From Clostridia bacterium (GTDB taxonomy: Bacteria; Bacillota; Clostridia; Oscillospirales; CAG-272): a stretch of 64,000 nucleotides of DNA. The notes beneath the pieces were generated by a model. It saw nothing but the letters and a program-made list of their open reading frames with translations, had not been told where the DNA came from and ran no database searches. The translations under genes were made by a program, and so were the position numbers. Shown one piece after another: positions 5,023 through 43,637 of the stretch; position 1 is the stretch's first letter, and each line of letters begins with the position of its first letter. Location: contig JAFXAN010000112.1 of the NCBI GenBank assembly GCA_017517035.1, positions 3,648 through 67,647 on the forward strand. Reading direction: 5' to 3'.

Positions 5023-5323
5023 AAACAGTAATTTATCGAACTGTTGAAAAGGTAAATAGACGGTGATGAGGACACAGTTAGCCTCCACTGATTTTGAGAA
5101 GCAAAATTAGGGGAGGTGGATTTTGCCGTAAGGCAAAAGACGGAAGGGTCTTATGTGGTGCAAAGTAGCTTTTTTGTTTTATAAAGTTACTTTGCAAGCT
5201 ACACCCTTCAGTCACGGCGAATAGTATCTATTTTTCTACGGCAAGTTATTTCGCCGTGCCAGCTCCCCTATTAAAAACAGGGGAGCCTTATTTTACCGAT
5301 CAATTTCACTTGTATTTAAATTC
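5023..5323. repeat. Structured repeat module of about 300 nt (module S), copy 1, starting with the family TIR
   Basis: Near-identical second copy at 26939-27239 (a handful of substitutions by eye). Contains several nested hairpins. Confidence 0.85.
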
Positions 5324-5489
5324 AAACAGTAATTTATCGGTGAGTGAAAACGAAATTTGTAGGGGCGATCATTGATCGCCCGAAAAAACAAACGGCGTAA
5401 AATAACGATATTTTGAGCTGTTTATGAGACGGGCGATCAATGATCGCCCCTACGGATTAAGGCTTCGACAGTTCGCTAAATTACTGTTT
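5324..5489. mobile_element. MITE-like element with a REPIN-like palindrome doublet (arms a and c, core GGGGCGATCATTGATCGCCC)
   Basis: TIRs AAACAGTAATTTATCG / CGCTAAATTACTGTTT. Two inverted GTAG-headed palindromes flank a 49-nt spacer. Related copies lie at 18260, 27240 and 37051. Confidence 0.8.
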
Positions 5490-12472: not shown

Positions 12473-12640
12473 AAACAGTAATTTAGCGAACAGTCGAAGA
12501 CGTGTTTTTGTAGGGGACGGCGACCACGACGTCCCTCAAAAGACATGAAATAACCGTGAATTTTAAATGAAAAATGGGACGTCGAGGTCGCCGTCCCCTA
12601 CAGATCTGCGTTTTTTCATCGCACCGACAAATTACTGTTT
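12473..12640. mobile_element. MITE-like element with a REPIN-like doublet (core GGGGACGGCGACCNCGACGTCCC)
   Basis: Family TIRs at both ends, with inverted GTAG-headed GC-rich repeats. A sister copy lies at 43470-43637. Confidence 0.8.
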
Positions 12641-16755: not shown

Positions 16756-17609
16756 AAATTTTATCCGAAAAAAGATGTATAATCGGTGAAGGTCCAATAT
16801 ATAACGAGAAAAACGGACTTCTCTATTTTACAAACGGTTTTGGTGATGAGCTTTGCACTTATGACATAAAGACAGATAAAATAAGTGTCAGACCGCTAAA
16901 GGTTGGTTGCGCCGCATATGCTTTTGATGTAAGTGGCAGACTTATCGTTTCAAGGCAGGACGGTGTTTTCTATTTGAATGATGATGACAGCGTTGAGCCG
17001 CTTTACGATAGAAAAAAATACGATATCAGATATGCAAACGACATGAAGGTGGGGCCTGACGGAAGGCTTTATGTGGGAACACAGAGCGGAAAACGAAAGG
17101 GTGTTTCTGACAAGATCGATGGCAAGCTTTACAGCATCGATAAGGACGGAAATGTTAAAATACTCCTTGATGGTCTTATTCTCTCAAACGGTCTTGAATG
17201 GTCGATTGATGAAAAGAGATTTTACCATACCGACAGCGATACCAATATTATAAAAGAATATGATTTTGATGCAAAATCAGGTGAACTGTCTTTTACCGGA
17301 AGAGAAATCTATATTCATGGAGTTGATGGATTTACTATCGACAGAAGCGGAAGGCTTATAGTTGCTTCAATGGGAGATGGATGTATTTATGAGGTAGATA
17401 CCGAGAATATGAAGATCGTTTGTAAAACGGATTTTCCCATGGGAGCCCTTGCAAGCTGTGGGTTTTTCGGTGAAAATATGGATATGCTGGCGGTAACGAC
17501 TTCCAGCTACACTGTGGATATAGAAAAGGATAAAAACGCAGGCTTTACTGTGATAATGAAGCGCAGTACAGGCGGAAGAAAACCTTATTTGTTTAGGAGA
17601 AAGATATGA
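16752..17609 (+). CDS. SMP-30/gluconolactonase/LRE-like six-bladed beta-propeller protein
   Basis: GEGPIYNEKNGLLYFT, NDMKVGPDGRLYVG, SNGLEWS and DGFTIDRSGRLIVA repeats. ATGA overlap with the GRE stop codon. Confidence 0.8.
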   Translation: MKILSEKRCIIGEGPIYNEKNGLLYFTNGFGDELCTYDIKTDKISVRPLKVGCAAYAFDVSGRLIVSRQDGVFYLNDDDSVEPLYDRKKYDIRYANDMKVGPDGRLYVGTQSGKRKGVSDKIDGKLYSIDKDGNVKILLDGLILSNGLEWSIDEKRFYHTDSDTNIIKEYDFDAKSGELSFTGREIYIHGVDGFTIDRSGRLIVASMGDGCIYEVDTENMKIVCKTDFPMGALASCGFFGENMDMLAVTTSSYTVDIEKDKNAGFTVIMKRSTGGRKPYLFRRKI

Positions 17610-18241
17610 AAAAAATACTTTTAATCGGTGATTCGATAAGAGAGGGTTATGACAAATATGTAAAAATGGCTTTTGAGGGCGTTGCAGACGTGATTTATCC
17701 CAATGAAAATTGCCGTGATTCGGGGTATATTATAAGGCAAATCGTTTTTTGGAGACAGCGGATGCCCCTTGGGGAGGATATTGACCTTGTACATTTCAAT
17801 GCGGGACTTTGGGACGATCTTCATATGTATGACGGAAAAAAGCTCAATTCGATTGATCAATACGAGGAAAATATAGATAGAATATGCACTATATTTAAAA
17901 AGCTATTTCCAAAGTCGAAGCTTATTTTCGCGACCTCGACTCCTGTTCAGGAGGAGCTTTTCGGTGAGCTTAAGCGTTATAATAAGGATACAGAGGAGTA
18001 TAATGCGGTGGCAACGGCGGTTGTGAAAAAGCATGGTGGCACGATAAATGATCTTTATGCAATAACCAAGGATATTCCGAAAAGCTACTATAGCGATCTT
18101 ACTCATCTTTATACAAAGGATGGAACAAAGCTCTTGACGGAGCAGGTTGTTAAAACCATCGAAGAAGCACTTGGCATAAGGGGAAAGGCACTTGATTACG
18201 AAGCTCTTTTCTCGGATGCAAAGGATGTAATCGGGATTTGA
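17606..18241 (+). CDS. SGNH/GDSL-family hydrolase
   Basis: LLIGDSIREGY block I (GDS). ATGA overlap with the preceding gene. Confidence 0.8.
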   Translation: MKKILLIGDSIREGYDKYVKMAFEGVADVIYPNENCRDSGYIIRQIVFWRQRMPLGEDIDLVHFNAGLWDDLHMYDGKKLNSIDQYEENIDRICTIFKKLFPKSKLIFATSTPVQEELFGELKRYNKDTEEYNAVATAVVKKHGGTINDLYAITKDIPKSYYSDLTHLYTKDGTKLLTEQVVKTIEEALGIRGKALDYEALFSDAKDVIGI

Positions 18242-18259: not shown

Positions 18260-18428
18260 AAACAGTAATTTATCGGTGCGAAGAAAAACGCAGATCTGTA
18301 GGGGCGATCATTGATCGCCCGAAAAAACAAACGGCGTAAAATAACGATATTTTGAGCTGTTTATGAGACGGGCGATCAATGATCGCCCCTACGGATTACG
18401 GCTTCGACTGTTCGCTAAATTACTGTTT
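18260..18428. mobile_element. MITE-like element with a REPIN-like doublet (arms b and c), inside the GRE cluster
   Basis: Core and spacer are the same as in 5324-5489. TIRs AAACAGTAATTTATCG / CGCTAAATTACTGTTT. It ends 14 nt before the activase start codon. Confidence 0.85.
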
Positions 18429-18442
18429 ACATAAGGAGAATT

Positions 18443-19273
18443 ATGACAGGAAGAATATTTGATATAAAGCATTTTGCGGTTCATGACGGTGATGGAATCA
18501 GAACCACGGTATTTTTTAAGGGCTGCCCACTGAAATGTTTGTGGTGTCACAATCCCGAGGGACTGACAAGACCAAAGCAGCTTGCTTACTATGAACATAA
18601 GTGCATCAGCTGTGGTGAGTGTGCCACAGCTTGCCCTGCACACATCATTTCAGAGAACGGACACATATTTGACAGGACAAAATGTGATGGCTGTGAGCAA
18701 AAAGAGGTCTGTCTATGTGAGCCTCTTTGTCTTGGCGGTGCGCTGAAGCATTACGGTCGTGATGTGACTGTAGATGACCTTATGCCCGAACTTTTGGCGG
18801 ATGTTGATTTCTATAAAAATTCGGGAGGCGGAGTTACTCTTTCTGGCGGCGAATGCTTACTTCAGGCAGATTTCTGTGCTGAGCTGTTAAAATCACTTAA
18901 GGCACAGGGAATAAATACTGCAGTTGACACCTGCGGATGCGTTCCGAGAGCATCGATTGAAAAGGTTCTGCCCTATACCGATGTGTTCCTTTTTGATGTT
19001 AAGGCGATAGACGGAGATGTGCATAAAAGGTGCACGGGAGTTGATAATGCTCTCATTCTTGAAAATCTTTGCTTTCTTGATTCTGTGGGAGCAAAAAATG
19101 AGATAAGAATACCCGTAGTTCCCGGATATAACAACGGAGAGCTTCCGAAAATATATGAATTTTTATCGAAGCTCAAAAATATAACTGCTGTAAAGGAGCT
19201 TAAATATCATAATCTCGCTGGCTCAAAATATGAAGCCCTCAAAATGGAAAATAACTTGCCAAAATCGACTTGA
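18443..19273 (+). CDS. glycyl-radical enzyme activating protein (radical SAM)
   Basis: DGDGIRTTVFFKGCPLKCLWCHNPE radical SAM cluster motif, plus a ferredoxin-type Cys-rich insert (CISCGECATACP). Confidence 0.9.
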   Translation: MTGRIFDIKHFAVHDGDGIRTTVFFKGCPLKCLWCHNPEGLTRPKQLAYYEHKCISCGECATACPAHIISENGHIFDRTKCDGCEQKEVCLCEPLCLGGALKHYGRDVTVDDLMPELLADVDFYKNSGGGVTLSGGECLLQADFCAELLKSLKAQGINTAVDTCGCVPRASIEKVLPYTDVFLFDVKAIDGDVHKRCTGVDNALILENLCFLDSVGAKNEIRIPVVPGYNNGELPKIYEFLSKLKNITAVKELKYHNLAGSKYEALKMENNLPKST

Positions 19274-26938: not shown

Positions 26939-27239
26939 AAACAGTAATTTGTCGAACTGTTGAAAAGGTGAATAAACGGTGCTGAGGACACAGTTAGCCT
27001 CCACTGATTTTGAGAAGCAAAATTAGGGGAGGTGGATTTTGCCGCAAGGCAAAAGACGGAAGGGTCTTATGGGGTGTAAAGTAGCTTTTTTGTTTTATAA
27101 AGTTACTTTGCAAGCTAAACCCTTCAGTCACGGCGAATAGTATCTATTTTTCTACGGCAAGTTATTTCGCCGTGCCAGCTCCCCTATTAAAAACAGGGGA
27201 GCCTTATTTTACCGTTCAATTTCACTTGTATTTTAATTC
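26939..27239. repeat. structured module S, copy 2
   Basis: Collinear with 5023-5323, with few substitutions. Confidence 0.85.
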
Positions 27240-27337
27240 AAACAGTAATTTAGCGGTGAGTGAAAACGAATTTTGTAGGGGCGATCATTGATCGCCCCTA
27301 CGGATTACGGCTTCGACTGTTCGCTAAATTACTGTTT
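27240..27337. mobile_element. collapsed MITE (arms a and c joined by a single palindrome)
   Basis: Ends are the same as in 5324-5489, but only one GTAGGGGCGATCATTGATCGCCCCTAC unit is present and there is no spacer. Confidence 0.8.
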
Positions 27338-37050: not shown

Positions 37051-37218
37051 AAACAGTAATTTAGCGGTGAGTGAAAACGAAATTTGTAGGGGCGATCATT
37101 GATCGCCCGTCTCATAAACAGCTTAAAATTTCGTTATTTTACGCCGTTTGTTTTTTCGGGCGATCAATGATCGCCCCTACAGATCTGCGTTTTTCATCGC
37201 ACCGACAAATTCCTGTTT
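37051..37218. mobile_element. MITE-like element with a REPIN-like doublet (arms a and b), spacer inverted relative to arm a
   Basis: Same palindromes as 5324 and 18260. The spacer is the reverse complement of that in 5324-5489 when both are anchored on arm a. Confidence 0.8.
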
Positions 37219-43469: not shown

Positions 43470-43637
43470 AAACAGGAATTTGTCGAACGGTCAAAGATGT
43501 GTTTTTGTAGGGGACGGCGACCTCGACGTCCCACAGAAGACATGAAATAACCGTGAATTTTAAATGACAAATGGGACGTCGAGGTCGCCGTCCCCTACAG
43601 ATTTGCGTTATGTTCACGCACCGACAAATAACTGTTT
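43470..43637. mobile_element. MITE-like element, sister of 12473-12640
   Basis: TIRs AAACAGGAATTTGTCG / CGACAAATAACTGTTT and the same GGGGACGGCGACC..CGACGTCCC doublet. Its right end overlaps the stop codon of the FAD gene. Confidence 0.8.

Follow-up and report, generated by a model that had tools for sequence, protein, structure and literature searches.

At positions 18260-18428 of the window, i.e., the 64,000-nt stretch of DNA from a Clostridia bacterium (Oscillospirales) that was analysed here, GC-rich palindromes headed by GTAG form an inverted doublet within a terminal inverted repeat (TIR) element. This raises the question whether a REPIN-type system, moved by a RAYT transposase, is nested inside a TIR shell, as had been proposed in a first-pass annotation. 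REP sequences are recognised by a fully paired stem of 7-20 nt that closes a short loop and has GTAG or GTGG on its 5' side at a distance of 0-2 nt (PMC6006769), and REP/REPIN-RAYT systems have been described in E. coli and Pseudomonas fluorescens (PMC2817692, PMC3116915, PMC3733652, PMC6006769). The REP/RAYT literature searched makes no mention of Clostridia or Firmicutes as hosts, nor of REPs nested in TIR elements. The genome studied here, G000, is a MAG of 3.07 Mb in 165 contigs, which is 96.9% complete and contains no contig below 2.5 kb.

The element at 18260-18428 and its copies in the window

The inverted doublet of GTAG-headed palindromes described for this locus is present. The element consists of 169 bp, in which a 12-nt terminal inverted repeat, AAACAGTAATTT, encloses two arms and two inverted copies of GTAGGGGCGATCATTGATCGCCC that lie 49 nt apart (Table 1). 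According to the arm typing it is a chimera, in which a b2 arm is joined at GTAGGGG to a type-A core followed by an a1 arm. Folding, which had been suggested as a check, gave one long hairpin for the DNA (-55.1 kcal/mol, z = -12.9) as well as for the RNA (-89.3 kcal/mol, z = -12.8), and in the predicted fold both GTAG units pair with each other, leaving the spacer as a small hairpin of its own. The element is intergenic and is flanked by two co-oriented genes. Here, 18 nt separate it from the stop codon of an SGNH-type hydrolase gene (ORF 17606-18241) and 14 nt from the start of a radical-SAM activase gene (ORF 18443-19273). Among the places listed by an exact-protein look-up no empty version of the site was seen, since all of them carry the element or end inside it. 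An Rfam scan of the window returned one tRNA and nothing else.

Table 1. Parts of the element at 18260-18428 and further shell elements with type-A or type-B cores in the window.
Feature	Position	Strand	Remarks
Left terminal inverted repeat of the shell	18260..18271	+	AAACAGTAATTT
Left arm	18272..18297	+	ATCGGTGCGAAGAAAAACGCAGATCT; 26 nt; type b2 by arm typing, usual partner of type-B cores
Left REP unit	18298..18320	+	GTAG tag and palindrome GGGCGATCATTGATCGCCC; type A
Spacer	18321..18369	+	49 nt; folds into a small hairpin by itself
Right REP unit	18370..18392	-	inverted copy; ...CCCCTAC on the + strand
Right arm	18393..18416	+	GGATTACGGCTTCGACTGTTCGCT; 24 nt; type a1 by arm typing
Right terminal inverted repeat	18417..18428	-	AAATTACTGTTT on the + strand
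Canonical type-A shell element	5324..5489	+	166 bp
Short type-A form	27240..27337	+	98 bp; single 27-nt palindrome GTAGGGGCGATCATTGATCGCCCCTAC
Chimeric type-A element	37051..37218	+	a2 arm, A core with flipped spacer, b2 arm
Canonical type-B shell element	12473..12640	+	GTAGGGGACGGCGACCNCGACGTCCC doublet; 40-nt spacer
Canonical type-B shell element	43470..43637	+	

Throughout the window GTAGGGGCGATCATTGATCGCCC occurs at eight sites (seven exact, one with one mismatch), namely at 5359(+)/5431(-), 18298(+)/18370(-), 27275(+)/27279(-) and 37086(+)/37158(-), whereas 0 would be expected from 100 shuffles. Likewise, the shell 12-mer AAACAGTAATTT gives 20 matches at ≤1 mismatch versus 0.9 expected. 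The six positions at which the first-pass annotation had placed the palindromes (5324, 18260, 27240, 37051, 12473 and 43470) are the starts of the elements, that is their AAACAGTAATTT ends, and the palindromes themselves begin 35-38 nt further in. One of these six, 27240, had been counted as a doublet and is in fact the short form with a single palindrome, which probably arose by slippage, with loss of 68 bp between the direct repeats GGGCGATCA of the two palindromes. The spacer of about 50 nt proposed for all doublets holds for type A, whereas in type B it is shorter by 9 nt.

Two modules of about 300 bp are located at 5023-5323 and 26939-27239 of the window. Both start with the shell end AAACAGTAATTT, finish with ...CTTGTATTTTAATTC and directly abut the left end of a type-A element. 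Their right-hand motif CTTGTATTTTAATTC recurs beside other copies in the genome.

The palindromes and their relation to REPs and RAYT-like genes

In the type-A unit, GTAG directly abuts a palindrome with 9-bp arms, GGGCGATCA-T-TGATCGCCC, and the stem of the type-B palindrome comprises 6+2 bp. This arrangement, with GTAG directly 5' of a GC-rich palindrome, is the one known from the REP/REPIN-RAYT systems cited above. As in REPINs, two inverted units have their GTAG ends outside (the 'HH' dimer of PMC3733652), here with a spacer of 49 nt (A) or 40 nt (B), and the whole folds into one hairpin. Further features shared with REP/RAYT systems are the high extragenic copy number, with 82 type-A and 68 type-B units in this genome, and the cognate palindrome of each RAYT lineage, a tie that was found for type A as well as for type B.

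The likeness to REPs noted at first reading is borne out by RAYT-like genes of related bacteria, whose palindromes are identical. For type A, a scan of one genome per species for the palindrome and a downstream HUH motif revealed RAYT-like Y1 transposase genes in 11 Oscillospiraceae/Faecousia MAGs, which carry the palindrome twice in frame. Within these genes the left 23-mer reads VGAIIDRP and the inverted copy GRSMIAPT. VGAIIDRP ... GRSMIAPT is encoded at all 11 loci, most of which have a full-length ORF of 164-175 aa. For type B, a metagenome scan yielded 57 RAYT-like loci encoding VGDG..DVP ... GTSR.PSPT. In addition, the congener G007 harbors a frameshifted, nonsense-bearing RAYT gene, whose right palindrome equals type B at 26/26 positions.

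The best family for the RAYT-like proteins is NF047646 (REP-associated tyrosine transposase), with E values of 1e-15 to 1e-19, although the matches fall short of its curated cut-off, and their sole match of solved structure is TnpAREP of E. coli (4ER8). In this alignment the HUH, W-Q..D-H..R and Y..NP motifs line up. The residues W-Q..E/D-H..R have been linked to GTAG recognition in RAYT/TnpAREP (PMC6006769), and the proteins of the relatives possess these as well as the HUH motif and the catalytic tyrosine. Weak PF01797 matches in G008, G023 and G028 correspond to RAYT-like proteins of 158-202 aa, and a RAYT-like copy in G005 (59% complete) was detected with a protein profile and not with PF01797. 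The strong PF01797 matches in relatives are ordinary IS200/IS605 transposases, which have no GTAG palindromes alongside.

RAYT-like genes carry their own palindrome twice, inverted and in frame, with one copy on each side of the HUH motif (loci L031, L029, L025, L035, L038, L040, L046-L056 and L069-L125), and in most of the genes inspected copies are also found beside the gene. In this respect related Clostridia differ from the E. coli/Pseudomonas type, their RAYT genes containing the cognate REP pair within the ORF in addition to having it alongside. The second in-gene copy codes for a loop inserted with respect to TnpAREP of E. coli, and RAYT lineages of Oscillospirales have differing palindromes at the same two in-gene positions. 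The idea that a doublet is an internally deleted RAYT gene was rejected, as the spacers have no similarity to RAYT interiors. Both palindrome types are true REPs, being identical to palindromes embedded in RAYT genes.

Palindromes of this kind are widespread in the order. The pattern GTAGGGGCG-N9-CGCCC occurs in 51 of 201 genomes, while a control pattern gives 0-2 matches per genome, and a RAYT-like gene is present in 45 of the 201. Counted together, 18 of the 25 genomes with at least five such palindromes contain a RAYT-like gene, compared to 27 of the 175 others; these are counts without a test statistic, taken over genomes that are related to one another. In relatives without shells, GTAGGGG-headed palindromes are free-standing and occur in arrays and pairs, as seen in G008 and G005 of the same genus and in G023 and G028 of other families. 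The three genomes G051, G172 and G168 contain 21-50 GTAGGGGCG-N9-CGCCC palindromes and have neither a detectable RAYT-like gene nor shells. REP populations without a RAYT are therefore not unique to G000.

The shell element

The shell is a repeat family in its own right. Genome-wide, its ends give 529 matches at ≤1 mismatch, and there are 135 complete pairs. Nearly all of the 165 contigs start and end 40-460 bp inside a shell element, so that roughly 250 shell copies can be estimated for the genome, of which about 75 are GTAG-cored. The shell family is the main cause of assembly breaks in G000. The elements fall into size classes of 98, 166-168, 191-203, 249, 269-271 and 345-350 bp, which have common ends and unrelated, hairpin-rich interiors. 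Past position 16 the two ends differ (...NNCGAACWGTC versus ...NNCGGTGAG/CGGTGCG).

The exact 16-mer end AAACARTAATTTNNCG is present in 336 copies in G000, 218 in G014, 156 in G002 and 99 in G007, whereas in each of 200 other genomes of the order at most two exact copies occur. The shells of G001 have a variant spelling of the end, AAACAGGAATTT. The shell is confined to this genus. It is furthermore independent of the REPs, since it also holds several unrelated hairpin cores, and REPs are found order-wide while the shell is found in the genus only.

To its left the shell is flanked by T-rich and to its right by A-rich sequence, and many of these flanks resemble terminator tails. Many elements directly follow such terminator-like tails, e.g., CAGCCCCTTTTTGT immediately followed by AAACAG, and in >90% of the copies a pyrimidine immediately precedes the left end and a purine follows the right end. 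A third GTAG-tagged palindrome, GTAGGGCAATGCGACAGCATTGG, has about 10 copies and belongs to the 345-350-bp class (e.g., C23:5171-5515). It occurs only in shell elements, and one of its copies lies at a contig end.

With its terminal inverted repeats, small size, lack of coding capacity and many copies, the shell resembles TIR MITEs such as Correia/NEMIS, RUP, ERIC, Bcr1 and EFAR (PMC3733652). Shared are a length of 98-350 bp, a terminal inverted repeat of 12-16 nt, folding as a long hairpin, an intergenic location, hundreds of copies, and subfamilies with common ends and unrelated interiors. In contrast to TIR MITEs, the shell has neither a target-site duplication nor a partner IS with the same ends, its two ends are unlike beyond 16 nt, and its sites are retained between species with differing cores. 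Also described are RAYT genes with long TIRs on either side, together with moderately abundant TIR repeat families (PMC3733652). These resemble the present case in that Y1-type transposases are tied to small TIR-bearing repeats and not to bare REPs. A difference is that the RAYT-like genes inspected in this genus have no shell flanks, and a shell end was found in none of the 57 type-B RAYT loci of the metagenome scan.

The search for an enzyme that moves the shell gave negative results throughout. No target-site duplication was seen at the shell boundaries at offsets of -8 to +8 and lengths of 2 to 9 nt, and only 29% of the copies are compatible with an IS630-like TA duplication. Between shell ends no transposase gene was found, the segments of 0.7-10 kb between inverted ends holding ordinary genes. 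Domains of IS630, IS4/5, IS256 and IS1595 are absent from the genome, and among the transposase families scanned no autonomous IS with the same ends was found. Phage and plasmid collections gave no match to shell elements. Copies of IS3 and ISL3 were rejected as partners as their ends differ, and the ISL3 remnant has no shell ends. The only transposase adjoining a shell end belongs to an IS3-family element (C133:7227-9034), which encodes an HTH OrfA and an rve OrfB in a shifted frame and is inserted just after the b2 arm of a shell. With no shell enzyme found and no target-site duplication, a MITE moved by a DDE transposase is not demonstrated.

Absence of a RAYT gene and confinement of the palindromes

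The transposase expected for a REPIN-type system was not detected in this genome. The PF01797 profile and a profile of six RAYT-like proteins gave 0 matches, and tblastn with five RAYT-like proteins gave nothing below E = 0.39. This result refers to a MAG with a bin minimum of 2.5 kb, while RAYT genes often lie on contigs <1.5 kb. The locus after the 5S rRNA gene, at which G007 carries its RAYT relic, is assembled in G000 and contains other genes and no RAYT. Profile searches found none in G014 and G001 either.

All 150 palindromes of the genome lie inside the AAACAGTAATTT shell, and no repeated family of GTAG plus hairpin was found outside of it. The copies sampled in G001 and G014, which have 68 and 82 type-B units, respectively, are likewise all within shells, and in G007 six of the seven type-B units outside the RAYT pseudogene lie beside a shell end. 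In contrast to REP/RAYT systems, G000 thus has neither a RAYT nor a free-standing unit, and its doublets without exception lie between the same inverted ends and arms that co-vary with them. The dispersed unit is not the REP or REPIN itself, and no cognate RAYT was found in the same genome, taken as a 96.9% complete MAG. A complete REPIN-RAYT system is not present in this genome. Of the proposal in the first-pass annotation, the doublets of REPIN architecture inside a TIR shell are supported, while a working system is not.

Probable origin of the element

The 44 complete elements with a GTAG core comprise 21 of the form b1-B-b2, 16 of the form a1-A-a2, which include three short forms of 98 bp, and seven chimeras with breakpoints at GTAGGGG. 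The type of the arms hence matches the type of the core (A with a1/a2, B with b1/b2) in 37 of 44, which points to copying of entire elements, and some sublineages of whole elements can be recognised. Taking the lack of a RAYT, the confinement of the palindromes and this arm-core linkage together, the likeliest copied unit is the whole shell element and not the REPIN.

We therefore favour, with a probability of roughly 55%, that a REPIN was captured in a TIR element specific to the genus, and that the whole shell element was then amplified with the REPIN as a passenger, the RAYT being gone. The element would be a composite. Its core, two inverted GTAG REP hairpins and a spacer, would belong to a REP family for which other Oscillospirales possess RAYT-type Y1 transposases, and this core would be enclosed in the non-coding shell of AAACAGTAATTT and two unlike arms. 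A RAYT-bearing ancestor may have captured one REPIN of each type, after which the RAYT would have been lost from this genome and the shell element, with its passenger, would have multiplied, presumably through the shell ends. The 98-bp forms, spacer flips and arm/core chimeras may result from slippage and recombination at the repeated palindromes.

The sequence variation adds a further aspect. In family A (13 canonical copies) the per-site pairwise difference amounts to 0.024 in the ends, 0.083 in the arms, 0.000 in the palindromes and 0.022 in the spacer. The corresponding values of family B (22 canonical copies) are 0.051, 0.185, 0.010 and 0.186. Compared with arms or spacers, the palindromes are conserved 10-20 times better, which cannot be explained by ascertainment, as the selection of copies tolerated ≤3 mismatches per palindrome. 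They are also the same in G000, G001 and G014, the type-B palindrome being unchanged although gene identity among these genomes is only about 70-83% in the stretches compared. A pure passenger should decay like its neighbours, and the palindromes are therefore not inert cargo. The likeliest reason for their invariance is that a four-fold symmetric hairpin under structural selection cannot change one base at a time. That the GTAG hairpins are still read by something, either a machinery moving or exchanging the shells or a host protein, despite the loss of the RAYT, appears doubtful, though it would explain the invariance across species while arms and spacers drift.

The left arm, the spacer and the right arm show no correlation in their variation (Mantel r about 0), four-gamete pairs amount to 44% between segments versus 28% within, and the spacer is found in either orientation, which recombination between inverted repeats would be expected to produce. 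We read this pattern as mosaic evolution anchored on conserved palindromes and ends, combined with purifying selection on the four-fold symmetric hairpin. It would also suit a different, rather unlikely history, in which the shells are long-lived docking sites and hairpin cores, including REPINs, move or swap between them by recombination or by cleavage at the GTAG boundary, which would make the REPIN an invader and not a passenger. At the position orthologous to the focal site in G014, the shell is the same and the right junction agrees to the nucleotide, yet the core, of 250 bp, is unrelated, and most other sites of the window also appear occupied in G014, whose contigs break there. These orthologous shells with other cores, together with the seven chimeras, to which the focal element belongs, fit core exchange better than simple copying, and the same kinds of cores are free-standing in shell-free congeners. 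Against this stand the arm-core linkage and the whole-element sublineages. Furthermore, the type-B spacer has diverged as much as the arms, so that the doublet is no recent arrival as a single unit, and an enzyme for such an exchange is not known in this genome.

Compared with this, capture in a shell and amplification as a passenger remains our preferred explanation, and it also has to be weighed against a RAYT that still drives the doublets, its gene being missing from the assembly or present in part of the population only. Conservation of the palindromes, within this genome as well as across the three species, would then reflect continued sequence-specific use. A gene could indeed escape a 96.9% complete MAG with a contig minimum of 2.5 kb, since the RAYT family is large (4960 proteins at E ≤ 1e-20) and many of its best-scoring members lie on contigs <1.5 kb. 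RAYT genes of this genus, in contrast, assembled well, on contigs of 11-20 kb and without flanking shells, and the orthologous locus in G000 is free of a RAYT. None of the four doublet-bearing genomes (G000, G001, G014 and G007) has an intact cognate RAYT, G007 having the relic only. Shell-rich G002, devoid of types A and B, possesses an intact RAYT of another palindrome type that has no dispersed copies there. Moreover, no doublet is free-standing here, although RAYT-positive genomes hold free REPs, and the REP-rich genomes G051, G172 and G168 likewise manage without a detectable RAYT. Overall, a hidden RAYT is slightly less plausible than the swapping of cores between shells. As to G002 itself, its intact RAYT-like gene and a partial second copy (C143:4636-5124 and C132:8259-8552) carry the palindrome GTAGGGCGGGGGCTTGCTCCCGCC, of which shell-free G005 contains nine dispersed copies.

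For a genome in which no RAYT is found and no palindrome lies outside the shell, the first-pass annotation had named simple internal MITE structure as the fallback. Both of these observations were made here, yet this description is too weak for cores that share homology with true REPs and have diverged far less than the other parts of the element. That the palindromes are ordinary MITE interior and resemble REPs by coincidence is very improbable, being refuted by the exact 23-mer and 26-mer found in frame, twice per gene, in 11 and 57 RAYT-like genes of other bacteria, and by the 0-2 matches of the control pattern per genome.

Significance for REPINs and their hosts

REPINs are considered dependent on a RAYT that is inherited vertically along with them. 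If so, REPIN populations should not expand after the loss of the RAYT. Here, two REP families are present at about 150 units without a detectable RAYT, and only as cores of another non-autonomous element. The new link is that two shell subfamilies have as their cores REPINs that belong to known RAYT lineages and were amplified in genomes where no intact cognate RAYT is present. Nesting inside a second repeat suggests one way in which REPINs outlive their transposase, and shell-nested REPINs offer a natural test of what keeps REP hairpins conserved. As shell elements end nearly every contig, they also influence MAG quality in this group of gut bacteria. Should some factor indeed still read the GTAG hairpins, this would mean that a second, RAYT-independent mobile or recombining system has adopted REP hairpins as its functional core.
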